In this document: positions 210-45,207 of the stretch, one piece after another
Position numbering within the stretch: the first letter of the stretch is position 1
Layout of the letters: each line of letters opens with the position of its first letter
Source of the DNA: a virus
Virus record (IMG/VR): IMGVR_UViG_3300022917_000005
Length of the DNA: 45,207 nt
Reading direction: 5' to 3' (one strand)
Made by a program: the position numbers and the translations under genes
Notes under the pieces: generated by a model
Seen by the model: the letters and a program-made list of their open reading frames with translations, nothing else
Told to the model about the DNA's origin: nothing
Databases searched by the model: none

Positions 210-289
210 TACTCATCCCTCATTCCGTCAACAATGACGAATCCCACCCAGTAGCTGAGCCACAGGATGGGAATCAACGTCAGAATCAT
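209..289 (-). CDS. Possible 26-aa hydrophobic micropeptide
   Basis: ATG at 289 overlaps the upstream stop (TGATG). It encodes MILTLIPILWLSYWVGFVIVDGMRDE, and its TAA overlaps the next ATG (TAATG). This is translational-coupling geometry only. Confidence 0.3.
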   Translation of the reverse strand: MILTLIPILWLSYWVGFVIVDGMRDE

Positions 290-498
290 CACTCAGGACC
301 GAAAGCCGCGTTTAGTGCTTCGCGGTCGCGCTTCTCCTTCAAGATCGAGCCCTTGCGCGTGAGCCCGAAGTTGAACCCGATCAGCCCCTCGCGCTTCAGC
401 TCCTCGCAGCCCGGCCCCTTGCGAACGGTTGCACCCTGCGCGCTGCCGGCCGCGGTGGCCAACCGATCCTCTGCGGTGGTGCTCAGCTTCTGTGTCAT
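289..498 (-). CDS. Hypothetical 69-aa protein, predicted leaderless
   Basis: ORF track. The ATG at 498 lies 6 nt downstream of the TAGACT -10 box of the motif promoter. Confidence 0.65.
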   Translation of the reverse strand: MTQKLSTTAEDRLATAAGSAQGATVRKGPGCEELKREGLIGFNFGLTRKGSILKEKRDREALNAAFGPE

Positions 499-4108: not shown

Positions 4109-4162
4109 CAGTTGAGATACAACCTAGGTCGTGCTACCTTGACGTAGTCGAGATTTCAACTG
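4109..4162. promoter_or_regulatory. Divergent promoter/operator region with two motif copies
   Basis: Plus strand: TTGAGA (4112-4117), 17 nt, TACCTT (4135-4140). Minus strand: TTGAAA (4159-4154), 17 nt, TAGCAC (4136-4131). Motif copies at 4109-4126 and 4146-4162. Confidence 0.55.
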
Positions 4163-4601: not shown

Positions 4602-5272
4602 GCGAGCTTTCCGATTACCTCGCGGAGTACGCCGAAGGTGTGGTACAGGAGTGGATGCGCCTCATCGACATTCCTGATGACATTCAGGCGCGCGTGACGT
4701 GGCTTGGCGACGATGAGTTCCGGTTGGAGATGATGGATCGCGCGGAGATTGGGCACTTCCGCCTGAAGGTCACCGTGGAGCCCGTGGACGTTCCCCCGAT
4801 CGGCCCGGAGAATGATCCGGCGCAGATCGAGGAGATGAAGGATTCTTCCTGCTCGATCTGCGGGCGCATCCTCGCTCAGCCCGAAGATCCGCTTTCCGTG
4901 GACTGCGGCGGAGACTGTCTCGGTTGCATGATCGAAGCCGAGAAGCAGATGGACACCACCCCAGACGAGTGGGTGGCGAGCACGTGGGCCATGACGGCGC
5001 TGGGTGACCGGGTGCGCATCGGGGAGAGCGAAGCCGTCATCGAGGGTTTCTCGCGCCTCCCCTGGCACAGCATCATCGAGAAGTCTTTCCACAAGCCGGA
5101 TGGCAAGTGGTGGGACAGTGTGAAGCCGTTCGAGCACACTCAGATCCACGTGAAGCTCGCGCACCTTCCCGAGGTGCTCTCGCTGCCGGCGACCGGAGAG
5201 GTGGAGATTCTCTGTTCCGTGACGCGCAAGGCGATGCTCGCTTTGGGCGGCACGTTTCCTGCGTCAGAGTGA
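4598..5272 (+). CDS. Hypothetical protein with a Cys cluster
   Basis: GTGA overlap start (VSELSDYLAEYAEG...). Contains CSICG...CGGDCLGC. Confidence 0.6.
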   Translation: MSELSDYLAEYAEGVVQEWMRLIDIPDDIQARVTWLGDDEFRLEMMDRAEIGHFRLKVTVEPVDVPPIGPENDPAQIEEMKDSSCSICGRILAQPEDPLSVDCGGDCLGCMIEAEKQMDTTPDEWVASTWAMTALGDRVRIGESEAVIEGFSRLPWHSIIEKSFHKPDGKWWDSVKPFEHTQIHVKLAHLPEVLSLPATGEVEILCSVTRKAMLALGGTFPASE

Positions 5273-5902: not shown

Positions 5903-6474
5903 GCGATGACATGTGGGAGAGGATGACGCGCCTTCTGGCGCCCCAGGATCGAGACGCCCGTTTCCCCCAGAGGTGCCACATCGGCAGCGAAGCGTGGGAT
6001 GCACTGCGTGAACACGCGAAGGTACCGGCGCAGCCCTTCGGCTACGTTAATCAGTTCTACGGCGTGCCCATCGTGCTGGACGAGAGCTATCCGCCTGACA
6101 TCTGGCGCATCCTCGATCAGCACGGCGAGGAGATGGCTAGCGGCTCCTCACGCTTCCTCCTCTCGAAGGCGGATCTCGATGCTCGTCTTCAGGATGCCGA
6201 TGAGCACGGTGGTGGACCGGAATATGATTGCTGGGGCGTGGGTAGTCCCGATGGCCCATGCGGTGGATGCGGGCGCTGCTTTCGGATGATGGAAAGCCAC
6301 TACTTCGAAAAGTCGCGAGTGGAGGCGGCGCACTATCACGCCGCGGGCTTCGAATGGGCGCCCTACGCCATCGACCTCGGCCACTTTCCCGGCTTCGGTG
6401 GATATCACGAGAGCTACGGGTGCGCGATGGCCAAGGAGCGCCCCTTCGGCATGTTCCCGTGGGAGAAGCTGTGA
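5899..6474 (+). CDS. Hypothetical protein (191 aa)
   Basis: ATGA overlap start; ORF track. Confidence 0.65.
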   Translation: MSDDMWERMTRLLAPQDRDARFPQRCHIGSEAWDALREHAKVPAQPFGYVNQFYGVPIVLDESYPPDIWRILDQHGEEMASGSSRFLLSKADLDARLQDADEHGGGPEYDCWGVGSPDGPCGGCGRCFRMMESHYFEKSRVEAAHYHAAGFEWAPYAIDLGHFPGFGGYHESYGCAMAKERPFGMFPWEKL

Positions 6475-8270
6475 GTGCTCTGCTCAAACTCCGTGATTAT
6501 CAGACGGAGACGATTCGCGCTCTGCATCAGCGGTGGGACGCTGGTGCGGGGCGCGTTCCCAGCGTGCTCGCCACGGGGCTCGGCAAAACGGTGATCTTCG
6601 CGCATCTCATCGCGGAGCACCTCGATGCGCATCCGCTCGATCGCGCGCTGGTGCTGGTGCACACGGACGAGCTGGCGCTTCAGGCTGCCAAGAAGATGCG
6701 CGAGGTTGCTCCGCATCTCTCCGTGGGCATCGTGAAGGCGGAGCGCAACGAGGTGGCCGCCCGGGTGCTCATCGGCAGCGTGCAGACGCTCCGCAATCCG
6801 AAGCGCCTCGCGCAGGTACGCCGCGTCTCCCTGATCGTGGTAGACGAATGCCATCACGCGGTGGCCACCACCTATCAGACGATCCTCCGTGGGCTCGATG
6901 CTCCAGGGCAACGCGTGGCCGGCTTCACGGCAACGCTGGCCCGCGGAGACAAGCTGAAGCTCTCCGACATCTGGGAGGAGCCCGCCGTCACCTACGGCAT
7001 CTCCTTCGGTATCCGCCGCGGCTATCTCCTCGATGTCCGGGGCAAGCGGATCGTGATCCCCGATCTCAACCTCTCCAACGTGCGCAAGCAAGGAGGAGAC
7101 TTCGCAGACGGAGCACTGGCCACGGAGATGGATCGGGCGCTCGCTCCGGAGAAGATCGCGGAGGGGTGGCTGGAGCACGCCAGCGACCGCAAGGGCATCG
7201 CCTTCTGGCCCACGGTGGAGATGGCGGAGCACGGGGAGAAAGCCTTCCTCAACCTTGGGATTCCCAGCGAGACCATTCACGGCAAGCTGGGGCGCGAGGA
7301 GCGTCGGGCCATGCTCCGGCGCCTGCGCTCCGGCGAGACGCAGGTAATCCACGGCGTGGGGGTGCTCACGGAGGGATTCGATGATCCCACCATCTCCTGC
7401 GTGGGGATCTTCCGCCCTACGCGCAGCGCTCCGCTGTATCAGCAGATGGTGGGACGCGGGCTCCGTCCGGATCTGGAGCTGCCGGCCGCGGAGCGCGGGG
7501 ATTGCCTGGTGCTCGAAGCGGTGGGCGCCGGCGCGCAGCACGATCTCCGTACTCTCGTGGATCTCTCCGAGCACAAGCCGGATGACGCGGTGGAGATGGA
7601 TGAGGAGCTGACGCTCCTCGGCATGGAGGAGATGTGGGAGGAGGAGGAGAAGGAGAGCGCGAGTGCGGGTGGGTGGCCAGAGGAGGAGGCGTGGGACGGA
7701 GACACGGAAACCGTTGATTTCGATCCTCTGGGGAGAACTACTCCCGGAGCGTGGCTGCATACCTTCGAGGGGCACTACTTCCTCCCCATCGGCCGCCGCG
7801 CCTACGCGCTCATCGTGCCTTCGGAGGAGCCCGGACGCTGGGATGTGGCGTGGATCGTCAAGGAGCCCGGGCAATACGGCTACCTCTCCTGTCCCGCGGC
7901 CACCAGCTACCCGAAGCGCTTCGGGCGCTCGCGCTGGTGCGGATGCGGGGAGAAGCACGAGGGGAGCATCGGCGCGCTCACGGAGCACCGCGGGCTCTCC
8001 TTGGAGATGGCGTGCAGTTGGGCGGAGGAGGTGATGGAGGAGGTGGCCGGCAAGGCGCTCGCAGCCAGGGTAGGGCACGCTGCCGCGGAGTGGCGCGGGC
8101 AGCGCCCGAACATCACCCTCTTGCGCGAAGCGTGGGATCTCTCCATCCCAGTCTCCACCACACGCGGGATGACCAAAGGGGAGTTGACTGATACAGTTGA
8201 GATATTGACTGCCAGCAAGCGCATTGATCCGGTAGTCCAGTTCATGATGATGAGCAGGGATGGGGAATGA
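6471..8270 (+). CDS. SF2 DEAD/DEAH-box DNA helicase
   Basis: GTGA overlap start. Motifs ATGLGKT (I), DECHH (II) and QQMVGRGLR (VI). Confidence 0.85.
   Translation: MSALLKLRDYQTETIRALHQRWDAGAGRVPSVLATGLGKTVIFAHLIAEHLDAHPLDRALVLVHTDELALQAAKKMREVAPHLSVGIVKAERNEVAARVLIGSVQTLRNPKRLAQVRRVSLIVVDECHHAVATTYQTILRGLDAPGQRVAGFTATLARGDKLKLSDIWEEPAVTYGISFGIRRGYLLDVRGKRIVIPDLNLSNVRKQGGDFADGALATEMDRALAPEKIAEGWLEHASDRKGIAFWPTVEMAEHGEKAFLNLGIPSETIHGKLGREERRAMLRRLRSGETQVIHGVGVLTEGFDDPTISCVGIFRPTRSAPLYQQMVGRGLRPDLELPAAERGDCLVLEAVGAGAQHDLRTLVDLSEHKPDDAVEMDEELTLLGMEEMWEEEEKESASAGGWPEEEAWDGDTETVDFDPLGRTTPGAWLHTFEGHYFLPIGRRAYALIVPSEEPGRWDVAWIVKEPGQYGYLSCPAATSYPKRFGRSRWCGCGEKHEGSIGALTEHRGLSLEMACSWAEEVMEEVAGKALAARVGHAAAEWRGQRPNITLLREAWDLSIPVSTTRGMTKGELTDTVEILTASKRIDPVVQFMMMSRDGE
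8194..8211. repeat. Palindromic motif copy inside the helicase CDS
   Basis: CAGTTGAGATATTGACTG. Confidence 0.5.
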
Positions 8271-14941: not shown

Positions 14942-15066
14942 GCTGGGTTTGGGTGATCGGCATCGGGGGTTACGGGGCGCTGGCGCTGGTGCTCGCAATG
15001 TGGAGCGCCACGGAGTTCGTGTGGAAGATCAGGGATAGGCGAGCACGAGGGAGACATCGGAGATGA
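14938..15066 (+). CDS. Possible 42-aa membrane peptide
   Basis: ATGA overlaps at both ends; encodes MSWVWVIGIGGYGALALVLAMW... Confidence 0.45.
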   Translation: MSWVWVIGIGGYGALALVLAMWSATEFVWKIRDRRARGRHRR

Positions 15067-16967
15067 AGAAGCTACGGCTGATCTGGCTTGCGATTCAGCT
15101 CACCTACCGCTTCTGGAGCGGGCGCCCGATGAACGGCCAGAGGAAGACGAACGCTACGTTCCGGCGCCGTGCCACACGTTCCCTCGATGAGAGCGGCACC
15201 GCACTGCGGTGGGAGATGCTCGCCGGCTACGAGCGTCTTCTCTGGCGCCTCTCCGTCTCCTACCTCACTCTCCTCTTCTTCGTGCTCCTGGTGCTCTATC
15301 CGTTCGGCAAGACGGATGAGGTACTCCTCCCGCATCTCCTCCTGGCCGCACTCCTCGGGAGCGTGATCCTCCTCCGCCGTCGCGTGAGGGATCACGGATA
15401 CCGCATCCCTCTCCCGATGCGCGTGGAGAAGGAGACGGAGGAGATGGCTACCGCGGAGAAGCATTGGAGCATCGAGTGGTTGGAGCGCGAGGGGCGCCTG
15501 CTGTGGGAGATGGAGAAGGTGTTTCCCGTGGGGCGCGCGGTGATGGCTCAGCTCTCCACCAGTTGGACGGAGAAGGAGATGCGGCAGCGCATCACCGTGC
15601 CTCGCAACTATAAGGAGGAGAACGGCGGCAAGGTGGAGATCCTCCTCCCCGCCAACTTCACCGGCGCGGATATCAACACACAGACGCGTCTGGTGAGCAC
15701 CGTGGCCCGGAAGCTGGGGATCACGGAGCCCGCAGCTAACTGGCAGATCGAGGGGAGTGCTCCTCGCGTGCTTATCGGGATGCCTCCGGCACCTCCGAAG
15801 CTGGTTCTGTTCCCGGAGGTGCGCCGCTACTTTGAGGCGGCGGAGCCCTTCAAGCCCTTCTACGGGATCATCGCCGGAGGAGAAGCGCTCCACATCGGGA
15901 TGCATAGCGACACTCCGCACATGGCCATCTCCGCGGGCAGCGGCGCCGGTAAGAGTGAGATGATCAAGGTTCTCATCATGCAAGCGCTTCATTGGGGATG
16001 GAGCGTGGTGATCCTCGATTGGAAGAACGAAAGCCAGGAGTGGGCGAAGGGTATCCACGGAGTGCGCTACTACTCCACGGAGGAGACGATCCACGATGCG
16101 CTCATCGCCATCGGGGAGGAGATCGATGCTCGCAAGAATGCCCCCGGGGGCACGGAGCATCATCCCTTCATCGTGGTGTGCGAGGAATGGAGCATGACTA
16201 GCGATCTCCTCTCCGAATACTGGGGAGCACTGCGGAGCACGGCGGAGCCCGAGGAGCGCAAGCTCATGCCCACGCGCTCGCCGGCGCTCACTGCGGCTAA
16301 GAAGGTGGTCTTCACCGGCCGCTCGCTTGGCATTTTCCAAATGTTGGTGGCCATTCGATTCAGTGCGCGGGTAACGGGTGGGAATGCGGATCTGCGCGAG
16401 TCATTCCAGGTGATCTTGATGGCTCGCTATAAGAGTCAGACCATTGCGATGCTGGCGAAGGGAATCAAGCCCTTCCCCGCAAACAAGCCCAAAGAGGTGG
16501 GTCGTTGGGTGGTGGTGGCCGGCGAGGAAGCGACCATTATGCGGGCGCCGCTGGTCACGGACATGGAGGCAATGGAGTGGGCAGCCTCAGGGGTTGAAGC
16601 ACCCATGAGCCCCTTCAGCGAGCGTTATACCCTCTCACCGGGGCAGCAGGGTAACACGCACGCTACCCTGCCGAACCATCCTGCCCCCGCGGTAGCTGGA
16701 GATAACTGGAATGGCCTTCCGGTATTGGAGGCTGAGGCAGTTGAGATTCAACCCAGGAAGCTCTCCGAAATGGTCGATGACTTGCATGACACGGTGGATG
16801 ACAAACTCACCCTGAAGATCCTTCAGAAGGCAGCGGGGGACAAAGACAGCGGCTTCCCCCTGCCTCAGGGAATGGGCGCGCATGGTGCCTATCTTTACGA
16901 TCCTGAGTCAGTTAGGATCTGGACTAGAAAGCGTTATGCCACGCGGATGGCTCGCGGTGCGCGATGA
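15063..16967 (+). CDS. FtsK/SpoIIIE (TraB-like) DNA translocase with N-terminal TM segments
   Basis: Walker A SAGSGAGKSE, Walker-B-like FIVVCEEW, and hydrophobic helices at aa 60-105. Confidence 0.8.
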   Translation: MKKLRLIWLAIQLTYRFWSGRPMNGQRKTNATFRRRATRSLDESGTALRWEMLAGYERLLWRLSVSYLTLLFFVLLVLYPFGKTDEVLLPHLLLAALLGSVILLRRRVRDHGYRIPLPMRVEKETEEMATAEKHWSIEWLEREGRLLWEMEKVFPVGRAVMAQLSTSWTEKEMRQRITVPRNYKEENGGKVEILLPANFTGADINTQTRLVSTVARKLGITEPAANWQIEGSAPRVLIGMPPAPPKLVLFPEVRRYFEAAEPFKPFYGIIAGGEALHIGMHSDTPHMAISAGSGAGKSEMIKVLIMQALHWGWSVVILDWKNESQEWAKGIHGVRYYSTEETIHDALIAIGEEIDARKNAPGGTEHHPFIVVCEEWSMTSDLLSEYWGALRSTAEPEERKLMPTRSPALTAAKKVVFTGRSLGIFQMLVAIRFSARVTGGNADLRESFQVILMARYKSQTIAMLAKGIKPFPANKPKEVGRWVVVAGEEATIMRAPLVTDMEAMEWAASGVEAPMSPFSERYTLSPGQQGNTHATLPNHPAPAVAGDNWNGLPVLEAEAVEIQPRKLSEMVDDLHDTVDDKLTLKILQKAAGDKDSGFPLPQGMGAHGAYLYDPESVRIWTRKRYATRMARGAR

Positions 16968-18163: not shown

Positions 18164-18474
18164 GCAAGCCTCTTCTTTACCCGGAGCGGCAGCGATGCAA
18201 GAAGTGTCGTCTGTACCTCGGAGGCTTCGCGGTATTAAAACGGCTGTACTGTTCGTACGATTGCGCTGGCGTGGCGATGCCTTCCGAGAATCCTGACGAT
18301 TGGCCACGCCAGCACTTCGCCCGCTATAAAGGCAGAAAGACCGCGAAGATTGCCTACGATTACCCGGAGCAGCCGGATGAACGGAAACAGCGATTTTCTG
18401 ACCTAGTGACCTATCTTTGCGAATACTGTCTCATGTACCATCTAGGCCACGAAGGGGTGCAATCCAATGACTAG
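18160..18474 (+). CDS. Cys-rich hypothetical protein (104 aa)
   Basis: ATGA overlap. Contains CKKC...CSYDC...CEYC. Confidence 0.55.
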   Translation: MSKPLLYPERQRCKKCRLYLGGFAVLKRLYCSYDCAGVAMPSENPDDWPRQHFARYKGRKTAKIAYDYPEQPDERKQRFSDLVTYLCEYCLMYHLGHEGVQSND

Positions 18475-19561
18475 GCCGAGCTGGACTATGAGGAGTGCTC
18501 TCCTGGCCGCTATCGATGGAGATGGCTTCGTTCCCGTGTTCGCCAGCAGTGCCAACGCGGTGATGCGCCGGAAGATGGTAGATGCCGGCTGGACGGAGAA
18601 GGATGGCCGAATTACTGCGGAGGGACGCTTCGCAGTGGCGCTGCGCCGAGGAGAGGGGCAATGGTACGTGCTCCCCGGCAACGGGCCGTGGAGGATCGAT
18701 GACGCTTGCTTGGCGAGCCACCACAACACCACGTACGCCATGCGCGGATACGTGTACGAGAACAACAGAATGCTCACCGGGCGTATCCGTTGCACGTGCC
18801 CGCGCGCGCTCGCACTGAAGGAGATCCACGCCAAGCAGCTCCGCGAATCGCAGCGCCGGCACTACCACAACCAACCTCCTGCGATGCCGTCATGGTGGAC
18901 AGGACCTTGGCGCATCTTGCCAGAGTGTCCGGCCGCGGGGCACAACGTGCTCACGCGCGCTCTGCGTGGCCACATCCTGAAGCGCTGCATTTGTCCGCGG
19001 GCGCTGGCGCTGGTGGCTCAGCACTGGCCCGCGGAGGCAGAGAAGAAGAAGGCGCGAGCGAAGGCAAAACCGAAGGCGAAGGCGAAGCGCGAGAAGCAGA
19101 TCCGGATCAATGCACCAACCAATGGAATCGGCGTAACGCTCTACAGGTCACCCGATTTCACTCGCGCACCATGCACTGATCATCGCGCACTGTTCGATCG
19201 CGCGATGGAGAACGATCCAAAAGCACGCGCAGGCGCGAAAAAGGTCTGTGAGGATTGCCCCCTCGCGGTGCAGTGCGGAGACTGGGTAATGCAGGAAGAG
19301 GGCACTAAGCCCGGTAGTTGGGGCGGTATCTGGGGTGGGCTCAGTCCGCAGGATCGAAGGAGGAGATATGAAGCAGCAGGAGCTGGTGCCGTACTCGCAG
19401 CCGAACATCCCGTTCAGCGTGATGCGGGGGCCGAAGTGGCAAACGCTCGCGGAGGCGAACCGACTGGAGAAGGCGGGGAAAATCCGGGTGCTGGGCAACG
19501 GAGTGCTCTATCAGGAAGGCGTGCGTATCCTCATCGCACTGCCGTACGAACCGCTCACTAA
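18467..19561 (+). CDS. WhiB-like domain fused to an N-terminal region of unknown function
   Basis: C-x24-CEDC-x5-C followed by GIWGG. The N-terminal part carries two RC(T/I)CPRALAL repeats. The last 195 nt overlap the next well-supported CDS. Confidence 0.65.
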   Translation: MTRPSWTMRSALLAAIDGDGFVPVFASSANAVMRRKMVDAGWTEKDGRITAEGRFAVALRRGEGQWYVLPGNGPWRIDDACLASHHNTTYAMRGYVYENNRMLTGRIRCTCPRALALKEIHAKQLRESQRRHYHNQPPAMPSWWTGPWRILPECPAAGHNVLTRALRGHILKRCICPRALALVAQHWPAEAEKKKARAKAKPKAKAKREKQIRINAPTNGIGVTLYRSPDFTRAPCTDHRALFDRAMENDPKARAGAKKVCEDCPLAVQCGDWVMQEEGTKPGSWGGIWGGLSPQDRRRRYEAAGAGAVLAAEHPVQRDAGAEVANARGGEPTGEGGENPGAGQRSALSGRRAYPHRTAVRTAH

Positions 19562-39349: not shown

Positions 39350-39432
39350 GATCGCTTCCTTCCCTTGCGTTCGGGTGGATCTTCGGGTGGTGTTTCGGGG
39401 GGCGGGGGGTAATCCTCGCCTTCCTTCGCCAT
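39346..39432 (-). CDS. Possible 28-aa Pro/Glu-rich peptide
   Basis: Coupled at both ends but low complexity. Confidence 0.25.
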   Translation of the reverse strand: MAKEGEDYPPPPETPPEDPPERKGRKRS

Positions 39433-39587
39433 CAGTCGTTGTCGGCGCTGTCTGCCTGACCCCACGTCCCGCACGTCCCGCAGCGCTTGTCCGCGGGAGC
39501 GGGGACGTGCCTGCCTGCGCACGACGTGTCGACGTCCGCAGGGTTGGTCGGGGGAACCGGCTGGATGGGGCGTGGCGTCTTCTTCAT
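39432..39587 (-). CDS. Leaderless 51-aa protein with CxxC
   Basis: The ATG at 39587 is 6 nt after the TAGTCT -10 box; encodes MKKTPRPIQ...CGTCGTWGQ. Confidence 0.5.
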   Translation of the reverse strand: MKKTPRPIQPVPPTNPADVDTSCAGRHVPAPADKRCGTCGTWGQADSADND

Positions 39588-39626
39588 ACCACCAGACTAG
39601 CCATGATCAGTCGAGATGTCAACTGG
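39588..39626 (-). promoter_or_regulatory. Leaderless promoter with motif copy
   Basis: TTGACA (39622-17), 17 nt, TAGTCT (39599-94), 6 nt, ATG. Confidence 0.65.
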
Positions 39627-39645
39627 TCTGTGGTAGGCTGTAGGC
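39611..39645 (+). promoter_or_regulatory. Divergent plus-strand leaderless promoter sharing the same palindrome
   Basis: TCGAGA (39611-16), 17 nt, TAGGCT (39634-39), 6 nt, ATG (39646). Confidence 0.45.
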
Positions 39646-39816
39646 ATGACAGAGACCTGCGCAGTAAAGATCCAGAACGAGGGCAACCGCCCGTGCGGCA
39701 AGGCGGTGGTCTACTGCACGGCGAACAGCGAGCGCGGCGAGTATTCCGGGTGGCGCCACGCCGATCCGGCACACGACGTGCCTCACAGTGCCGTACCGAA
39801 ATCCTGGGTGCGCTGA
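39646..39816 (+). CDS. Possible leaderless 56-aa Cys/His protein, antisense to the late operon
   Basis: Encodes MTETCAVKIQNEGNRPCGKAVVYCTANSERGEYSGWRHADPAHDVPH...; converges on the terL stop. Confidence 0.4.
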   Translation: MTETCAVKIQNEGNRPCGKAVVYCTANSERGEYSGWRHADPAHDVPHSAVPKSWVR

Positions 39817-39817
39817 G

Positions 39818-41203
39818 CTACATACGGCGCGCGCGTGGGGCTTGGCGAAGATCGAGGTAGCCGCCCACGTAGCGCGCCGTATCCATGCTGTGATCGTTCA
39901 GCTTCAGGGGCTCATCCGGCGCCGGCTTGTCCTGTGTCGTGCCAGAGCTGTTCGGCTTAGCTTTCCACACATAGCCCGTCACCTCGCCCGCGAAGCCGAT
40001 CGGCAGCGATGCGTCAGTGAGGCGCGGGTCACGCTCCACCAGTGAATCGCGACACACGAAGAGGCGATTCTCCGCCATCCGCTTCTGCATCGCCTGAATG
40101 CCCGGGCTCACGTCTTTAATGGCCGGCACGGTGCGCAGCCCGCTGTGCTTCTCGAAGGTGGCGCGGTCCTCTGCGTCGTGATCCGTGATGATCCAGTCGG
40201 GCTTTGGATACTTCCACGTCTCGCCATCCTGCTTCGTGATGCAGGGCTTGATCTTCTGCTTCCATATGTCCTCCACGAGCATCTGTGTCTGGTAGATCTC
40301 CTTCTCCAGCCACATACGCCCATCCGGATCGATCGCCCACATCTGCCACACGAACGGGTTGACGTACCCGAAGTCAATGCCCCAGATGCGTTGCCAGTCC
40401 TTCGGCAGCACCTTGCGATCCACGAGATGTACGGCGGGATTCCACCGTTCGTAGATGACACCCTCCGCGGCAGCCCATATCCCACCTTGAAGGCGCAACT
40501 TGCGAACGCCCGTCAAATTGTTAAGTTTCTTCAGATATGACTCGCCGCGCTCGGTTGCTTGGCCGGCTGCATCGAACAGGATCGGATTGTCCTGATGCAG
40601 CGAATACAGCATGACTGTCTTACCTTCGTCACATCTGAGCTTGAGCCAGTGATCCGGACCTTCTGGGTTGCAGTCTGCGAGGATCTGCTGAAATGAGATG
40701 CGCCCGTTACGCAGGCGCGAAGTGAGCTTTTCCCAGTCAGTGATGCTCAACTCTGTAGCTTCCTGCACAAAGATCACATCGTACTCAGATGACATGATCT
40801 TCGTGGCGTTGTCCATCCCGCCCACGATGATCTGTGATCCGTTACCGTAGATAAACTGCGCCGGATCCGCGCCCGATCCCCCGTACCACTTCAGCAAGCC
40901 CATTGAGAGCGCTTCTACCGCTACGTGCTGCTTGAACGTCACCAAACCCGTGGATGTGAGGGAGTTGTGAGTCTTGCGCACGATGAGAGCGCGCATCCCG
41001 CGATCGTGGTGCTCGTGCTCGATCTTGCATCCACGCACACACGCGCCGTTCTTCAGGCACATCATGTGGATCTTCCACAGCGCGCCGAAGCTCTTGCCCG
41101 TGCCCGCGGCGCCACAGATCAGCACCTCATCCTCGCGCCGGCTGAACAGCTCACGCGATGCCCCGCGCAGCTCCAGCCGCTTCGTCAGTACGTCGGTAGA
41201 CAT
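39818..41203 (-). CDS. terL: Terminase large subunit
   Basis: 461 aa; Walker A GAAGTGKS; Walker-B-like VIFVQEATE; C-terminal nuclease-size domain. Confidence 0.85.
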   Translation of the reverse strand: MSTDVLTKRLELRGASRELFSRREDEVLICGAAGTGKSFGALWKIHMMCLKNGACVRGCKIEHEHHDRGMRALIVRKTHNSLTSTGLVTFKQHVAVEALSMGLLKWYGGSGADPAQFIYGNGSQIIVGGMDNATKIMSSEYDVIFVQEATELSITDWEKLTSRLRNGRISFQQILADCNPEGPDHWLKLRCDEGKTVMLYSLHQDNPILFDAAGQATERGESYLKKLNNLTGVRKLRLQGGIWAAAEGVIYERWNPAVHLVDRKVLPKDWQRIWGIDFGYVNPFVWQMWAIDPDGRMWLEKEIYQTQMLVEDIWKQKIKPCITKQDGETWKYPKPDWIITDHDAEDRATFEKHSGLRTVPAIKDVSPGIQAMQKRMAENRLFVCRDSLVERDPRLTDASLPIGFAGEVTGYVWKAKPNSSGTTQDKPAPDEPLKLNDHSMDTARYVGGYLDLRQAPRARRM

Positions 41204-41209
41204 GGATCA

Positions 41210-41237
41210 CCCCCGCGCCCATCGTACGGCGCGGGGG
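41210..41237 (-). promoter_or_regulatory. GC hairpin abutting the terL ribosome-binding region
   Basis: CCCCCGCGCC-8 nt-GGCGCGGGGG. The 3' arm ends 6 nt before the terL ATG. Confidence 0.4.
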
Positions 41238-41246
41238 TCGGGTTGA

Positions 41247-41486
41247 TCAGGCGATGCGGTAACCGCCGAGTGAGCGCCGGTTGATGATCAGATCCTGGTC
41301 ACGGGCGCCGTCGCCAACCTCGCGCACCGTGATGGACTTCGGGGAGCCACTCTTGCCCACCAGCGAAATGACCTTCGAGGCACCCATGTGCGGGTACTTG
41401 ACGTCCATCAGGATCGTCCCGATCTCAAGCTGAGCGTCGATGGCGGCAGCGGCGGGGCTGAGTTTCGGAGCTTCGTTCTTCGTCAT
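41247..41486 (-). CDS. Leaderless hypothetical protein (79 aa)
   Basis: ORF track; ATG 6 nt after the TACACT -10 box. Confidence 0.6.
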   Translation of the reverse strand: MTKNEAPKLSPAAAAIDAQLEIGTILMDVKYPHMGASKVISLVGKSGSPKSITVREVGDGARDQDLIINRRSLGGYRIA

Positions 41487-41534
41487 ACCAGAAGTGTAGC
41501 CCCACCCAGTTCAGATGTCAACTGGGTGGGGCTA
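41487..41534 (-). promoter_or_regulatory. Leaderless promoter cassette inside a 38-bp perfect-arm palindrome
   Basis: TTGACA, 17 nt, TACACT, 6 nt, ATG. Arms TAGCCCCACCCAGTT / AACTGGGTGGGGCTA span 41497-41534. Confidence 0.7.
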
Positions 41535-41540
41535 GGTGGA

Positions 41541-41768
41541 TCAGGCCACCCGGTAGAAGCGCCCCGGCATGATCTCCGGGCCGGAGAAAAACAGCTCGTT
41601 CAGGAAGTCGCGCGTCTCGCCGATGATCAGGCCCTTGCGCTCCAGCGAGTCAATCGCGTTACCGTTCGCGCCCGCGAGCTGAAATGCGGTGCGCTCCAGC
41701 TCGCCGGCCGCGGTGAGGATCTCCAGCGCCTTCGCCTGCGTCTTCGGGAGGTTCTGCGTCATCGTCAT
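41541..41768 (-). CDS. Leaderless 75-aa protein, possibly winged-helix-like
   Basis: ORF track. The first 5 codons (MTMTQ) are identical at nucleotide level to those of 43308..43583. Confidence 0.6.
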   Translation of the reverse strand: MTMTQNLPKTQAKALEILTAAGELERTAFQLAGANGNAIDSLERKGLIIGETRDFLNELFFSGPEIMPGRFYRVA

Positions 41769-41807
41769 ACCAGAAGTGTAGCCCCACTCAGTTCAGATGT
41801 CAACTGG
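41769..41807 (-). promoter_or_regulatory. Leaderless promoter cassette
   Basis: The 46 nt upstream of the ATG differ at 1 position from cassette 41487-41525. Confidence 0.7.
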
Positions 41808-41957
41808 CTACCAGCGAGGCAGGCGAGAGATCAAATACAGCAGTGCGCCGGCCAGGGGAGCAACCCCCTGAGACAAGCCCGCATCCCGAATCTTCTCGAT
41901 GAGGCGGGCTGCCTCGCGCTCAGCCCCGGTCGTTGAACGTGCCCGCCTGCTTGTCAC
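41808..41957 (-). CDS. Possible 49-aa tail-anchored peptide (paralog of the post-terS extension)
   Basis: GTG start; ends ...GLSQGVAPLAGALLYLISRLPRW*. Differs from 42193..42261 mainly at synonymous positions. Confidence 0.35.
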   Translation of the reverse strand: MTSRRARSTTGAEREAARLIEKIRDAGLSQGVAPLAGALLYLISRLPRW

Positions 41958-42153
41958 TGGCTTTCCGCCAGCCGTTTCCACGGCGGTTGTTTATGTTACC
42001 GAAAAGCCGAAACTCGATGCGGGTCTCGGTAACCTCGCGCATCGATGCGCCACCGTCTACCTGGACCATGTGACGATACGTATTCCGGTACGCTTCACGG
42101 CTGGTTCCGTCCGCCATCTCGACCGTGCCCTTGATGCTCTCCATCAGCTTCAT
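41920..42153 (-). CDS. Leaderless hypothetical protein (77 aa)
   Basis: ORF track; ATG 6 nt after the TACGCT -10 box. Confidence 0.6.
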   Translation of the reverse strand: MKLMESIKGTVEMADGTSREAYRNTYRHMVQVDGGASMREVTETRIEFRLFGNINNRRGNGWRKASDKQAGTFNDRG

Positions 42154-42192
42154 ACCAACAGCGTAGTCTTACCCAGTTCAGATGTCAACTGG
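42154..42192 (-). promoter_or_regulatory. Leaderless promoter cassette
   Basis: TTGACA, 17 nt, TACGCT, 6 nt, ATG. Confidence 0.65.
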
Positions 42193-42252
42193 TTACCAGC
42201 GAGGAAGCCGAGAAATCAAGTACAGCAGTGCGCCGGCCAGGAGAGCAATCCC

Positions 42253-42759
42253 CTACGACAGGTCCTCAGGGTCGATGCCTACCAGCTCGTAGCGCACGCT
42301 GCCCTGAATCTCCAGCTTGCCGGCAGCGTCGAGCCCCATGAGCTTCCTGGTCTCCGCGTCCATCTTCGCCGCCGTCTCGATCGCGCGCAGCTTGCCGGTG
42401 TAGTCGCGCACCACCTCGCCGTTCTCGTCATAGAAGATCGAGCCATCCTTGCCCACCGCCACGGGGGCAGCCGCGAGATCTGCGATCTCGAGCGCGCGCT
42501 CAGTCAGCTCCGCGTACAGCCCCAGACTCTGCTGCCGCATCTCATCGAGGTCCGGCGCGGGGATGTTGGCACGAACTTCGCGGATAATCTCAGAAACGCG
42601 CTGCTGCGAAATTCCGAGATCATCCGCGATCTGCTCTTGATTCTGGCGATAGACCGTGTACAGGCGCCAAACCTGGCCGTTGCGCCCTTCGTAGCGAGCT
42701 GCGCCCCGTTGTCCACGGCGCTCCCTCATGGCACGGGCAAGCTCATCGCCGGCACTCAT
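42253..42759 (-). CDS. terS: Terminase small subunit (sigma-70 region-4-like HTH)
   Basis: QEQIADDLGISQQRVSEIIREV HTH. ATG at 42759 after GGGAG; alternative start at 42828. Ends in TAG at 42255-42253. Confidence 0.65.
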   Translation of the reverse strand: MSAGDELARAMRERRGQRGAARYEGRNGQVWRLYTVYRQNQEQIADDLGISQQRVSEIIREVRANIPAPDLDEMRQQSLGLYAELTERALEIADLAAAPVAVGKDGSIFYDENGEVVRDYTGKLRAIETAAKMDAETRKLMGLDAAGKLEIQGSVRYELVGIDPEDLS

Positions 42760-42957
42760 GATGATCAACTCCCACGGGGGCTCACTAGACAGGTCTGTCT
42801 GCCAGGGTAGCTTATGGAGGGGCGCCATCGCTTCCGGTACGCCCTGTCAGCCGATCATAGATCGCGCGCCCCAGCACAGCCATCTGACGTACTCGCGTGT
42901 TCAGCGCAGCTACTCGATGCAAACGCTGAACGCCTTCTGTTAAGAAGGTTTACAACT

Positions 42958-43215
42958 CTACGCCCCGCGCCCCGCCACCTTGCCAGCCTTGTGCGTCGCG
43001 CGCCGGATCTGCGCGGGGGTGAGCTTCACGCTGCCGTTCTGCGCCCGGTACGCAGCCTCACGCTTGCCGTTGCCCATCGGCGTGGGCGCGCTCTGTGTGG
43101 CCTTGCGCACAGCCTCGCTCAGCTCCTTGACGCTCATCTTCGAGCGGCCGGCGATGGAGCGCTCCGCGGCCACCTTGCCGAGTTGGGTCTTGTTCATGCC
43201 CTTGTAGTTCGCCAT
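42958..43215 (-). CDS. Basic protein with a Rho_N/HeH (SAP-like) motif
   Basis: MNKTQLGKVAAERSIAGRSKMSVKELSEAV resembles the HeH/Rho-N fold motif. SD GGGGAAAAG. Confidence 0.5.
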   Translation of the reverse strand: MANYKGMNKTQLGKVAAERSIAGRSKMSVKELSEAVRKATQSAPTPMGNGKREAAYRAQNGSVKLTPAQIRRATHKAGKVAGRGA

Positions 43216-43260
43216 GATCTTTTCCCCTATCCCTGATCTGATAACCCGATTGAAACGTGT

Positions 43261-43277
43261 CAGTTGATATCTGAACT
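43261..43277. repeat. Palindromic motif copy
   Basis: CAGTTGATATCTGAACT. Confidence 0.45.
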
Positions 43278-43309
43278 AAAGAGGGGCGCCCCCGCGCCCC
43301 CGCCCCCTC
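43274..43309 (-). terminator. Terminator after CDS 43308..43583
   Basis: Minus strand reads GAGGGGGCG...CGCCCCTC followed by TTTAGTT. Confidence 0.5.
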
Positions 43310-43583
43310 ACTCCTCGAAAGCGGCAACCTCCGCTGCGATCATCTCCGCGGTCCACACGATCTGGCACTCGCACTTGCGGGTGCCCTCCGCCAGCTCGCG
43401 GAACATCTGCACCTCCATCGCCACACCCGAGGTGGTGATCTCCCCCAGCTCGCCATCCTCGATCAAGCCCTGCTCGATCATCACCTCCGCGTTCGCCTCG
43501 AAGCACCCCAGGTCGTGACCTGCCTCGGCAGCGATCATGCGCTCGATCTCGGCCCGCTCTGTGTGCTCCTGCGTCATCGTCAT
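43308..43583 (-). CDS. Leaderless acidic hypothetical protein (91 aa)
   Basis: ORF track; ATG 6 nt after the TAGACT -10 box. Confidence 0.6.
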   Translation of the reverse strand: MTMTQEHTERAEIERMIAAEAGHDLGCFEANAEVMIEQGLIEDGELGEITTSGVAMEVQMFRELAEGTRKCECQIVWTAEMIAAEVAAFEE

Positions 43584-43622
43584 ACCAGTAGTCTAGCCAC
43601 ACCCAGTTCAGATGTCAACTGG
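43584..43622 (-). promoter_or_regulatory. Leaderless promoter cassette
   Basis: TTGACA, 17 nt, TAGACT, 6 nt, ATG. Confidence 0.65.
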
Positions 43623-44903: not shown

Positions 44904-45207
44904 TGCTCCCGCCCCACATACTCCGCGCCGCTCTCCAACCCACGCTCGGGCGAAGAAACCATCGAAGGCGACCACCCTGCCTCGATGAAGCGCATCCCCG
45001 CCTCGAAGCTGGACATCATTGAGCCTGCGAACATGCAGGGATTCTCCGTCATCCACCGCACCAGCTCCCCCGCAGTCTGAAAAACCGGAGAAGCGGGAGA
45101 TCCCTCCGTGGTGGTCTCCCAGAGCTGATATCCGGGACCTTCCGGAGGATCGATGCTCACCCACGCTTCGTAGAAGTTTTCCTCCTCTTCCTCCGAAAGC
45201 CCGTCCG
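44900..45207 (-). CDS. C-terminal part of the junction-spanning hypothetical CDS (see 1..209)
   Basis: The ORF-track ORF 44900..45160 continues upstream in frame through the window end. Confidence 0.6.
   Translation of the reverse strand, partial: DGLSEEEEENFYEAWVSIDPPEGPGYQLWETTTEGSPASPVFQTAGELVRWMTENPCMFAGSMMSSFEAGMRFIEAGWSPSMVSSPERGLESGAEYVGREQ
45081..45207. repeat. Terminal direct repeat copy 2
   Basis: Identical to 1-127. Confidence 0.9.

Follow-up and report, generated by a model that had tools for sequence, protein, structure and literature searches.

The window analyzed here, a 45,207-nt circular and complete genome of an uncultured phage, carries four short genes of 91, 77, 75, and 79 amino acids (g91, g77, g75, and g79) close to its terminase genes, each opened by its own copy of a near-identical promoter cassette that leads directly into the ATG. 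We consider it likely that these cassettes are resident promoter-operator units that double as homology arms for the swapping of ORFs, with promoter starts, strength, and timing as we infer them. At the level of sequence, the insertion, deletion, and replacement of ORFs between cassettes could be seen directly by comparison with three related contigs (L072, L006, and L075). All genes concerned lie on the minus strand, and the contigs used for comparison were metagenomic, from JGI, ENA, and Logan. Three features point to an actinobacterial host, namely a WhiB domain, a GC content of 63% (0.632, SD 0.038), and a terL with relatives in Thermobifida and Streptomyces phages; terL, portal, and further proteins were of the actinophage type and not of the type of T4-like myoviruses. 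The genes and the boundary element of the region are as follows.

39818..41203, minus strand: terL, large terminase (Pfam Terminase_3, E 1e-9; phrog_2, E 2e-32)
41204..41249, minus strand: conserved element bounding the slot on the right, TGATCAACCC with a GC hairpin of -29 kcal/mol (z -3.45)
41247..41486, minus strand: g79, 79 aa; no family match; homologues in quite different genomic contexts
41541..41768, minus strand: g75, 75 aa, begins MTMTQ; no family match; homologues in L072 (99%) and L066 (65%)
41920..42153, minus strand: g77, 77 aa; no family match
42253..42759, minus strand: terS-like gene, N-terminal HTH of Sigma70_r4/KorA type; phrog_645
42958..43215, minus strand: g85, 85 aa; Shine-Dalgarno leader, without a class I cassette; weak match to a Rho_N/SAP-like N-terminus
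43308..43583, minus strand: g91, 91 aa, acidic, begins MTMTQ; no family match; 80% homologue at the same place in L006

The assignment of terL, made earlier in a sequence-only reading, was borne out by these family matches. That of 42253..42759 as terS is probable only: an HTH gene of phrog_645 stands upstream of terL (0 to 1.4 kb) in 13 related loci, but no small-terminase family was matched by its protein, for which Pfam gave a generic HTH only, a PDB sequence search came back empty, and a PDB profile search returned HTH domains only. The label of phrog_645 is "Rnase E," and in L066 to L068, homologues of the terS-like protein (42 to 44% identity) have at a distance of 2 kb a terL that is unrelated and belongs to phrog_38. 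The sequence-only reading had also held that terS and terL are usually adjacent, with the small units inserted between them, and relatives agreed: the two genes overlap by GTGA in L009 and are adjacent in L011, and in Streptomyces phage Geonosis a phrog_645 gene directly adjoins terL. The synteny comparison that it had proposed revealed varying content, from nothing (L009 and L011) to a DNA methyltransferase (L006 and L004; phrog_363, E 2e-13), a g77 homologue (L075), and others, and the same genes were not found in relatives as one promoterless operon, which it had named as one contrary outcome. Judged from these sequences, the slot that lies between the terS-like gene and terL is variable and hyperplastic; in the window it holds g77, g75, and g79. 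At its right boundary, the Shine-Dalgarno sequence of terL lies in the 3' arm of the hairpin, and the window, L072, and L075 have different ORFs there, all ending on one common TGA. The unit of g91 was present upstream of the terS-like gene, as claimed, but g85, which had not been counted, intervenes.

All four cassettes follow the pattern CCAGTTGACATCTGAACTG-N8-TAnnCT-N6-ATG, with ATGs at 43583, 42153, 41768, and 41486 on the minus strand, so that the claim of one cassette for each ORF stands. Read as a promoter, each gene has TTGACA-17 nt-TA(C/G)(A/G)CT-6 nt-ATG in front of it, and the exact 18-mer CAGTTGACATCTGAACTG occurs at 43604, 42174, 41789, and 41507. Another cassette was found just 3' of terL.

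43584..43622, minus strand: cassette c91; dyad box 43604-43621, -35 TTGACA 43618-43613, -10 TAGACT 43595-43590, 6 nt, ATG 43583
42154..42192, minus strand: cassette c77; -35 42188-42183, -10 TACGCT 42165-42160, ATG 42153
41769..41807, minus strand: cassette c75; -35 41803-41798, -10 TACACT 41780-41775, ATG 41768
41487..41534, minus strand: cassette c79; -35 41521-41516, -10 41498-41493, ATG 41486; sits in an inverted repeat
39588..39626, minus strand: extra class I cassette 3' of terL; drives a 51-aa gene (39432-39587)

The dyad box of the last of these apparently also serves a leaderless ORF of 56 aa that runs divergently, on the plus strand (39646-39816). In the full cassettes, the distance from the -10 to the ATG was 6 nt in 7/7 and the spacer was 17 nt in 6/7, and an independent sigma-70 scan chose three of the four cassettes, each with 10/12 matches. 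No Shine-Dalgarno sequence precedes the ATGs of g91, g77, g75, and g79, and none is held in the 6 nt between -10 and ATG. The cassettes thus combine what marks primary-sigma promoters of this kind, i.e., hexamers at 16 to 18 nt spacing, an ATG ~7 nt past the -10, and the lack of a Shine-Dalgarno sequence. With a consensus -35 and a -10 set 17 nt apart and the ATG placed exactly 6 nt past the -10, they are therefore predicted to be SigA/HrdB-type promoters giving leaderless mRNAs, the start following from the spacing. In Streptomyces coelicolor, ~21% of transcripts are leaderless mRNAs that share this -10/-35 consensus (PMC4895711).

The likeness among the cassettes forms a patchwork. The one-base difference reported between 41487-41525 and 41769-41807 (c79 and c75) was reproduced, with 45/46 nt identical and the identity reaching 7 nt into the coding sequence (ATGACGA), while c75 shares its 5' flank with c77 and the first five codons with c91. 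The identical opening of g75 and g91 was likewise found, and ATGACGATGACGCAG in fact opens three unrelated ORFs, the third being a 49-aa ORF of L072. Of the proposal that the cassette is a portable promoter-plus-start module, one part holds, in that the repeat includes start codons on these three ORFs; the cassette itself, however, is resident and spread over the genome, and it is the ORF body that is portable.

Across the genome, the full cassette pattern occurs 7 times, versus 0 in 300 resamples, with four of the copies inside 2.1 kb, and the 18-bp dyad box CAGTTGACATCT(C/G)(G/A)ACTG occurs 14 times, versus 0.28 expected. Box positions 1 to 5 (CAGTT) and 15 to 17 (ACT) are invariant at 14/14 sites. 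Boxes and cassettes also precede conserved genes, not just the small genes of the slot; the box with its -10, 6 nt, and ATG recurs in L004, L005, L006, L011, and L012, whose terL genes are 57 to 88% identical, and the architecture was seen in >10 independent contigs from the three sources. Because of these 7 cassettes and 14 boxes, their place before conserved genes, and the retention of the box in relatives, the cassette reads at the sequence level as the phage's own genome-wide promoter and dyad box, not as a foreign module traveling with morons. Inverted boxes were found inside the spacer of promoters with a TAGACA -35 (L006, 5073; L005, 3057; L012, 5793; L075, 1326 and 1705; window, 13295) and behind terminator hairpins (window, 43261 and 13599), with constant arms and a degenerate inner hexamer. 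The same half-site was thus present at all copies, independent of promoter orientation, as expected of an operator. Other lineages have different dyads embedded in the -35, the forms by lineage being CAGTT-N8-AACTG, CCTGT-N10-ACAGG, and TTGAC-N9-GTCAA. Candidates for the regulator of the dyad are the terS-like HTH protein, g69, g75, and the WhiB-domain ORF. Against the operator reading, perfect consensus promoters need no activator, and neither an integrase nor a classical repressor was found in the genome.

The small genes have the appearance of typical coding sequence at 63% GC (GC3 of 0.76 to 0.92 for g91, g77, g75, and g79), and their GC content of 0.59 to 0.65 is not deviant from that of the genome. 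Homologues of g77, g75, and g79 were few; those found elsewhere were conserved, with many invariant columns. For g77, they lie in other slots at 67 to 84% identity, in L075 (directly before terL) and L074. The structure model of g75 was poor (pLDDT 55), and that of g79, modeled with confidence (pLDDT 88), is a small SH3/KOW-like beta-barrel for which no specific structural match was obtained. In other lineages, the homologues of g79, g75, and g77 carry the promoter type of the resident genome, i.e., lineage-specific cassettes. By this comparison, the portable part is the ORF body between fixed arms.

The comparison of L072 with the window is part of the evidence for exchange. The two are 100% identical over 43183-42284 and 99.7% identical (1 mismatch in 300 nt) over 41798-41499, and between these stretches L072 lacks a unit bounded by a direct repeat. 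This 157-nt repeat (41727-41883 and 42112-42268) is 78% identical between its copies with a period of 385 nt, and the missing segment is exactly one period; the further ~60 nt that c77 and c75 share upstream are part of it. The c79 cassette is identical in L072 and is followed there by ATGACGATGACGCAG joined to the different 49-aa ORF, which begins MTMTQ and takes the place of g79; homology to the window resumes at the common TGATCAACCC stop element. The breakpoints of both indel and replacement thus fell at cassettes. The terL of L072 is 80% identical to that of the window and 95.6% identical to that of L006. L072 is a single 2.4-kb metagenomic contig, and its recombinant structure therefore rests on one assembly; independent support came from L006, L004, and L075, the first two of which share a methyltransferase-terL junction independently. 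The elements bearing on the repeat and on the region upstream are as follows.

41884..42268, minus strand: 385-bp unit (repeat copy 1, c77, g77, and tail), absent from L072
42193..42252, minus strand: mini-ORF remnant, copy 1, GIALLAGALLYLISRLPRW followed by a stop; in frame right after the TAG stop of terS; left part of the 157-nt repeat
41808..41867, minus strand: mini-ORF remnant, copy 2, GVAPLAGALLYLISRLPRW followed by a stop
43261..43301, minus strand: element between g91 and g85, a GC-rich terminator-like hairpin (43282-43301), then an inverted 18-bp box (43261-43278)

An L006 ORF encoding a 29-aa membrane peptide has in its 3' part the homologue of mini-ORF copy 1, and the two mini-ORF copies differ at 7/60 nt, comprising four synonymous changes, one stop-to-stop change, and two amino-acid changes. 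The arrangement of hairpin and inverted box between g91 and g85 is kept in L006. Hairpins were found 3' of g91, g75, and g79, and none 3' of g77. The c79 cassette is embedded in an inverted repeat with perfectly paired 15-bp arms (41497-41511 and 41520-41534; RNA fold of -32.3 kcal/mol, z -5.9), and for the c75, c77, and c91 regions the folds did not surpass those of shuffled sequence (z +0.2 to -0.4). As a separate observation, the lengthening of the c79 dyad to a 15-bp hairpin and the variable arm spacing and G-U-compatible changes in L066 to L068 fit an RNA stem-loop better than a protein site.

In the mechanism we favor, the unit would consist of an 18-bp dyad box with the -35 TTGACA in its left half, a 17-nt spacer, a -10 TAnnnT, and an ATG exactly 6 nt later. 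Host RNA polymerase of the SigA/HrdB type would start at or next to the A of the ATG, as the spacing suggests, and yield a leaderless mRNA, and a dimeric regulator on the invariant arms (CAGTT...ACTG) would most likely switch the whole promoter set together. The ~50-nt repeat, which stands before many genes and sometimes includes their first 2 to 5 codons, would act as a homology arm, and the conserved stop-plus-hairpin before terL as a further one. Recombination between cassettes, in one genome or between co-infecting relatives, would insert, delete, or replace the intervening ORF, and the outcome would be a slot filled with the individually promoted small accessory genes g77, g75, and g79. 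More tentatively, and less likely than not in our view, the slot may be a dedicated docking site for gene cassettes in this actinophage group. Its left arm (box, promoter, ATG, and up to 5 codons) and right arm (TGA, hairpin, and terL ribosome-binding site) would be fixed, and ORF bodies would be swapped between co-infecting phages by plain homologous recombination without an integrase. The dyads that differ among lineages would then be operators co-evolving with a lineage-specific regulator, so defining which phages share and co-regulate cassettes.

Other explanations account for parts of these data. The dyad could be an RNA stem-loop, i.e., a terminator, attenuator, or 3'-end stabilizer of the upstream gene that overlaps the next promoter and involves no regulator protein. 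The perfect stem at c79 speaks for this, as do the arms in L066 to L068, which differ in sequence from those of the window, enclose loops of 4 or 10 nt, and in part have G-U-compatible changes; the stem-loops of T4-type phages, which may overlap the -35 box (PMC2839356), offer the same arrangement. We nevertheless find it unlikely, since 13 of the 14 sites in the window have arms of only 4 to 6 bp and loops of 8 to 10 nt, c75, c77, and c91 do not fold beyond shuffles, the arm sequence is identical at all 14 sites beyond what complementarity asks, as a sequence-specific protein site predicts, and loop positions are kept even in the inverted copies. That the cassettes are simply independent strong promoters, alike through functional constraint plus one local tandem duplication and with no role in recombination, the slot varying by ordinary illegitimate recombination, seems to us distinctly improbable. 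The consensus alone imposes likeness at 12 positions, and no role in recombination is known for the start-associated repeats conserved in Cluster K and Cluster EF phages. Mosaicism in actinophages is, moreover, commonly put down to illegitimate recombination. The identity here, however, reaches past the hexamers (45/46 nt, first five codons, 60-nt 5' flank), the g77 indel is exactly one repeat period, and the replacement of g79 by the 49-aa ORF runs from inside a cassette to the common stop element, with the left side 100% identical.

We give very little weight to the idea that the four exact 18-mers and one inverted copy are a binding array for an HTH TerS, a pac-like region overlapping promoters by chance. 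The HTH type of the terS-like protein and the presence of five boxes within 2.4 kb around its gene fit such an array, and the pac region of SPP1 overlaps terminase promoters; but another nine boxes, found on both strands and all in phase with a -10 and a start codon, are scattered through the early and replication regions, and in L066 to L068 the dyads differ even though the terS-like proteins, 42 to 44% identical, have a similar recognition helix. Hardly credible, finally, is an origin of the repeats and of the L072 recombinant as assembly artifacts, with strains joined chimerically at repeats. Every sequence is a metagenomic contig, and related samples do contain close strains side by side, but the shared cassette of ~50 to 60 nt is shorter than the assembler's final k-mer, whose size is suggested by the label k141 in contig names and by an overlap of 127 nt at the window's termini, and both the recurrence of the architecture in >10 contigs and the junction common to L004 and L006 are independent of any one assembly.

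Exchange at resident cassettes bears on an old question, whether phage mosaicism arises by recombination at short conserved boundaries or whether genomes are joined illegitimately at random and then sorted by selection. In the present pair of natural genomes, the sequence to one side of a 50-nt promoter cassette is 100% identical and that to the other side encodes different genes, and the same small genes stand behind other cassettes elsewhere. Its four near-identical promoters, single dyad box, and defined slot make the region a compact system for the study of promoter-mediated gene exchange and coordinated control of accessory genes, and the cassettes are candidate strong leaderless promoters for actinobacterial synthetic biology.

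Morons, known from lambdoid and other temperate phages, are extra genes with their own promoter and terminator between genes that are adjacent in relatives. The small genes had been called moron-like, and they do resemble morons as single promoter-led genes between two otherwise adjacent genes, g91 and g75 having a 3' hairpin as well; they differ in that the promoter is the phage's own genome-wide type, the GC content is unremarkable, and no integrase was found. The SAS/ESAS elements of Cluster K mycobacteriophages and Cluster EF Microbacterium phages (PMC3203893, PMC7302621) are also conserved repeats directly before many start codons of genes of different families, some with upstream inverted repeats. 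They occupy the position of the ribosome-binding site, however, and are thought to be translational, whereas the repeat here has no ribosome-binding site and is a -35/-10 promoter phased to the ATG. Cluster O mycobacteriophages have 8 to 9 strongly predicted SigA-like promoters, three of them predicted leaderless, and a separate multi-copy 17-bp dyad motif, the predicted site of a dimeric protein (PMC4351075). Both systems thus have SigA-like promoters predicted to start at the first base of the start codon and a multi-copy dyad; the Cluster O dyads are mostly apart from promoters and not involved in indels (PMC4351075), whereas in the present phage the dyad incorporates the -35, and cassettes lie at breakpoints.

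Promoter-early stem-loops (PeSLs) of T4-type phages have been described as "mobile regulatory cassettes" (Arbiol et al. 2010, PMC2839356; Comeau et al. 2014, PMC4122927). Both systems have many near-identical promoters of host-sigma consensus with a dyad or stem-loop able to overlap the -35, copies that precede small ORFans in a hyperplastic region, and indel or replacement breakpoints between close relatives at the cassettes. In our case, both promoter and terminator activity are putative. The present phage is actinophage-like, its closest terL kin being Thermobifida and Streptomyces phages, whereas PeSLs come from T4-like myoviruses. A PeSL has a Shine-Dalgarno sequence and a start codon at its 3' end; here there is no Shine-Dalgarno sequence, and the cassette leads directly into the ATG with up to 5 codons within the repeat. 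One fixed operator-like dyad sequence is found at all sites, with a strong hairpin in one copy only, and the slot has a fixed right arm of stop codon, hairpin, and terL ribosome-binding site. The present case would thus carry the idea of PeSLs beyond T4-like coliphages, into high-GC actinophage genomes with predicted leaderless transcripts, as a clear though not unprecedented instance of gene shuffling.

The sequence-only reading had described four small minus-strand genes, here named by the length of their products in amino acids (g91, g77, g75, and g79), each led by a cassette of its own (c91, c77, c75, and c79). All four ORFs were found, with coding-like GC3 values of 0.76 to 0.92, and each is preceded by one cassette consisting of CCAGTTGACATCTGAACTG, 8 nt, TA(C/G)(A/G)CT, 6 nt, and ATG. 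The reported single-base difference between c79 and c75 was also recovered (45 of 46 nt identical, including the first 7 coding bases), as were the identical first codons of g75 and g91, both of which carry ATGACGATGACGCAG. An independent sigma-70 scan, for which 0.9 promoter-like sites were expected in the region, scored 10/12 matches for three of these cassettes. The cassette feature is real and far beyond chance. A further small gene of 85 aa (g85), located between g91 and the terS-like gene (42253 to 42759, minus strand), has a leader with a normal Shine-Dalgarno sequence, and no convincing promoter was found for g85-terS. On the 3' side of g91, a terminator-like hairpin is followed by an inverted copy of the 18-bp dyad contained in the cassettes (the box). 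Upstream, c77 and c75 have a further 60 nt in common, part of a 157-nt direct repeat with 78% identical copies and a period of 385 nt, while c79 is situated inside a perfect 15-bp inverted repeat (fold of -32.3 kcal/mol, z -5.9).

The box is a near-palindrome, CAGTTGA-N4-TC(A/G)ACTG, and was found in three contexts and before further genes, as follows (L numbers are related metagenomic contigs).

Class I: the left half of the box supplies the -35 element.
Class II: inverted box in the spacer, -35 element TAGACA; L006 at 5073, L005 at 3057, L012 at 5793, and L075 at 1326 and 1705.
Class II: window 13295, with a weak -35 element.
Class III: inverted box directly behind a terminator hairpin and before a leadered gene; window 43261 and 13599.
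Full cassette: 39622, before a 51-aa gene just downstream of terL (39818 to 41203, minus strand).
Full cassette: 533, before a conserved 69-aa gene (g69).
Full cassette: 19820, plus strand, before a 48-aa gene.

With up to three mismatches, the 18-mer occurs 13 times in the window (0.03 expected), and the palindromic consensus with up to four mismatches gave 14 sites (0.28 expected), all of which share positions 1 to 5 (CAGTT) and 15 to 17 (ACT). The full pattern, TTGAC(A/T)-17/18-TAnnnT-6-ATG followed by an ORF, was observed at seven window sites and in none of 300 resamples; none of the seven falls in the structural block at 20.3 to 38.5 kb. The same box, -10 element, and 6-nt spacing were present in the IMG/VR relatives L004, L005, L006, L011, and L012, whose terL is 57 to 88% identical. 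Since it is found genome-wide and in relatives, the cassette represents the promoter type native to this group of phages and not a foreign attachment to the small genes. Boxes also lie at 4145 to 4162 and 8194 to 8211, one in a divergent intergenic region between leftward and rightward early genes and the other within the DEAD-helicase gene, at its 3' end. The box downstream of terL (39608 to 39625, in the region 39588 to 39816) looks bidirectional: its minus-strand side would drive the 51-aa gene, and on the plus strand TCGAGA-17-TAGGCT-6-ATG leads into a 56-aa ORF (39646 to 39816, GC3 0.81) that converges on the terL 3' end, an arrangement with an equivalent in L004.

Because the distance from the -10 element to the ATG is constant at 6 nt, the predicted transcription start is the A of the start codon, and no Shine-Dalgarno sequence precedes the cassette-led ATGs. 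We infer from these sequence features that the cassettes are transcribed and very probably act as promoters giving leaderless mRNAs. Such transcripts have precedents: about 21% of the primary transcripts of Streptomyces coelicolor are leaderless, with the same -10/-35 consensus and a preference for AUG (PMC4895711), and in Cluster O mycobacteriophages some strongly predicted SigA-like promoters are predicted to yield leaderless mRNAs (PMC4351075). Leaderless starts in the window and in L004 to L075 are mostly ATGAC (Met-Thr; MTMTQ, MTKNE, MTQKL, and MTENQ), a bias pointing to selection on the bases that are transcribed or translated first.

We then considered whether the box is recognized as DNA or works as a structure. 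The inverted copies keep the arms CAGT...ACTG, while the inner hexamer varies (TTGATA, TTTACA, TTGAAA, and TTCACA). As the arm sequence is constant at all sites and in either orientation, a constancy that a mere stem would not require, a sequence-specific dimeric protein is indicated, and on balance we favor the box as a putative operator for such a protein. The main rival, in which the dyad works as a stem-loop, is unlikely, although it would share with the operator one line of support: dyads embedded in the -35 element differ among lineages, being gACCTGTTGACGCAtCgACAGGTc (CCTGT...ACAGG type) in L066-68, TTGACACTTCACAGTCAA in L073, and CGTTGACATCTGGATGAG in L074, which would fit operator-regulator co-evolution but also conservation of structure. 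An RNA hairpin as the general role of the dyad was rejected because the stems are too short at most sites, mostly 4 to 6 bp; for the c75, c77, and c91 regions, folding was no better than that of shuffled sequences. In the entire window, no Rfam family reached its gathering score. As a separate observation, a conserved 66-69-aa protein (MxKLSxxAE...GLTRKGSIERE), encoded at window 289 to 498 (minus strand; g69) and in L006, L011, L012, L015, and L074, is preceded by a class I cassette in every case and is a candidate small regulator.

The interval between the terS-like gene and terL, the slot that holds g77, g75, and g79, was compared by searching 21 loci and later contigs with the window proteins (tblastn). 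In L009 the terS-like gene and terL overlap (GTGA), and in L011 the two are directly adjacent; in the remaining relatives, they are separated by about 180 bp to 1.4 kb. Gene order in L006 (terL 88% identical), RusA-g263-g91-g85-terS, is that of the window (g263 being the neighbor of g91); its gap is occupied by a hydrophobic mini-ORF of 29 aa, a class II cassette, and a gene for a DNA methyltransferase of 297 aa (phrog_363, E 2e-13), with no homologues of g77, g75, or g79 in this contig. The methyltransferase-terL junction is common to L006 and L004. Immediately upstream of terL, L075 has a g77 homologue (67%) and its class II cassette, and in L012 and L015 the gap is filled by other small cassette-led genes. 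The L006 mini-ORF (4986 to 5075, MNAWFWVGVGGVGALLAALIYLIARLPRW) overlaps the terS stop by GTGA; the window has two copies of its last 19 codons only (42193 to 42252 and 41808 to 41867), one of them in frame right after the terS TAG, and the changes between copies are mostly synonymous, so that they may be either a remnant or a still-translated micropeptide. A terS read-through extension, which the in-frame position of this 60-nt repeat upstream of c77 and c75 could imply, was rejected as the main reading because in L006 the repeat corresponds to the 3' portion of a 29-aa ORF that is separate and in a different frame.

The most direct evidence on how the slot changes came from L072, a 2.4-kb ENA contig reached via its 99% g75 homologue. 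It is 100% identical to window 43183 to 42284 (g85 and terS) and 99.7% identical to 41798 to 41499 (c75, g75, and c79; one mismatch in 300 nt). Between these stretches, the terS stop is followed by a single 60-nt copy of the mini-ORF remnant and a cassette leading directly into g75; the 385-bp g77 unit is missing, a size of exactly one period of the 157-nt repeat. At the other end, the c79 cassette is that of the window but continues as ATGACGATGACGCAG-ATGGCGAAG... into a 49-aa ORF unrelated to g79, with an MTMTQ start, as in g91 and g75, fused before its apparent own ATG. Homology restarts at the stop codon. This codon is part of a conserved element, cTGATCAACCC-hairpin-GGTGAnnATG, which precedes terL in the window, L005, and L075 and lacks the hairpin 3' arm in L072; beyond it, the L072 terL is 80% identical to that of the window, 95.6% to L006, and 92.7% to L004. 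One cassette flank is therefore perfectly identical between L072 and the window, while the other carries a different ORF and a different terL allele. The window cassettes are themselves a patchwork, c79 and c75 sharing the core, c75 and c77 the 5' flank, and c75 and c91 the first codons. The L072 junction and this patchwork similarity argue that homologous recombination or gene conversion has taken place at the cassettes, and the slot is likely a recombination site where ORFs are swapped between cassettes.

The element before terL has features of its own. It comprises TGATCAACCC and a GC hairpin (window 41204 to 41249, L005 1632 to 1682, and L075 1959 to 2008), and the unrelated ORFs upstream all end at its TGA. 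The terL Shine-Dalgarno sequence lies within the 3' arm, and the stem sequence of the window differs from that of L005 and L075 with pairing preserved; the hairpin could gate terL translation or terminate upstream transcripts.

Homologues of the small genes were found in varied settings. Those of g79 (64 to 82%) in L069-71 are in the early region near a DEAD helicase and follow TTGCCT-17-TAGACT-6-ATG without a dyad box, and that in L073 has a leadered promoter and another dyad. The g79 homologues in L067 and L068 and the g75 homologue in L066 lie upstream of an unrelated terL (phrog_38), with a CCTGT...ACAGG-type cassette, and g91 has an 80% homologue in L006. The GC of g77, g75, and g79 (0.59 to 0.65) is within about one standard deviation of the genome. 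The varied contexts and undeviating GC indicate that the small genes circulate in a common actinophage gene pool, and by sequence each bears the promoter type of its resident genome, the ORF bodies being portable. The sequence-only reading, which proposed a duplicated, portable promoter-plus-start module carrying moron-like genes, was right in substance, but it is the ORF bodies and not the promoter that are portable. Two corrections apply: the module is a genome-wide promoter-operator, the operator part putative, and its evolutionary role is probably that of a docking arm for ORF-swapping recombination.

That the small genes are real follows from their conservation, with 36 to 49 invariant columns in small alignments of homologues. 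Pfam, PHROGs, and PADLOC gave no match for g79, g75, g77, or g91, IMG/VR scans gave none with g75, g79, or g77, and a PDB sequence search gave none with g75. The g79 model was confident (pLDDT 88), with a helix and a five-stranded SH3/KOW-like barrel; its fold search returned generic SH3/KOW-like barrels only, all with E >0.05 (best 0.06) and no specific neighbor. The AlphaFold model of g75 was unreliable (pLDDT 55) and was left out of the fold search. A short motif common to g75 and the leaderless g69 (pairwise E 6e-4, weak local similarity) may hint at a related small DNA-binding fold.

Positions 1 to 127 of the window are identical to 45081 to 45207, so the contig is complete and closes into a circle, with about 45,080 unique bp and a GC of 63%. 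It encodes terL (Pfam Terminase_3 and phrog_2), a portal protein, a GH25 endolysin, a Prim-Pol/AAA_25 primase-helicase, a DEAD helicase, NUDIX, MazG, and a RusA-like resolvase; no integrase was found in the window. A WhiB-like domain (Pfam E 4e-9, residues 234 to 298 of the ORF at 18467 to 19561, plus strand) favors a host among the actinobacteria. Proteins of the WhiB-like family bind the primary sigma factor at its region 4, which reads the -35 element. The window terL shares 40 to 48% identity with the terL of Thermobifida phage P1312 and of Streptomyces phages. A megablast search of 50,697 phage records with the region gave no nucleotide match, and a scan of GTDB genomes with terL gave distant Clostridia prophage matches only and no prophage copy. 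We take the window to be an uncultured actinophage. It also encodes a 634-aa protein (15063 to 16967, plus strand) with an FtsK/HerA/T4SS-coupling-type ATPase motif (DUF87, AAA_10), unusual for a phage of this size. In L021, the terL match is in two pieces (4762 to 5250 and 6001 to 7008), about 750 nt apart with overlapping query ranges, which suggests an insertion (intein or homing element) or a partial terL duplication.

The terS-like protein, a 168-aa member of phrog_645, has an HTH related to Sigma70_r4, KorA, and Mor. In Streptomyces phages, phrog_645 members directly precede terL, and the terS-like gene is upstream of terL in 13 of 13 related loci covering the region; we treat it as a probable terS. 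The assignment is in doubt because homologues 42 to 44% identical (L066 3330 to 3821, L067 3452 to 4003, and L068 3528 to 4025) are followed, about 2 kb downstream, by a terL (phrog_38) and a portal (phrog_104) of families unrelated to those of the window. These homologues score above the Sigma70_r4 and KorA thresholds of Pfam. The protein may instead be a transcription regulator. No small-terminase family or structure was matched in Pfam or PDB; a PDB sequence search and tblastn against phages gave no match, and a PDB profile search with 16 terS-like sequences returned HTH domains only.

Among known systems, the moron concept fits the window units in insertion and own promoter but not in composition and prophage expression. 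The SAS/ESAS motifs of Cluster K and EF phages are located at the RBS position. Cluster O mycobacteriophages combine SigA-like promoters, some predicted leaderless, with a separate 17-bp dyad repeat, which, unlike the window box, is mostly away from promoters and not at indel boundaries (PMC4351075). The closest functional analogue is the PeSL of T4-type phages, present at about 50 copies per genome and consisting of a sigma-70 early promoter and a stem-loop that can overlap the -35 element; PeSLs are found before ORFans in hyperplastic regions, and recombination between PeSL copies accounts for the indels and replacements seen among close relatives (PMC2839356, PMC4122927). Like PeSLs, the window cassettes are copies of a promoter and dyad before ORFans, with likely recombination at the cassettes in a variable region. 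Unlike PeSLs, they are predicted to be leaderless, their repeat runs into coding sequence, the dyad sequence is fixed and operator-like, the right arm of the slot is conserved, and the phage is an actinophage. The terS-terL slot is an unusually clean natural example of cassette-bounded exchange, and its cassettes suggest a defined system in which modular exchange mediated by promoters, and the coordinated control of leaderless accessory genes, could be tested in actinophages.
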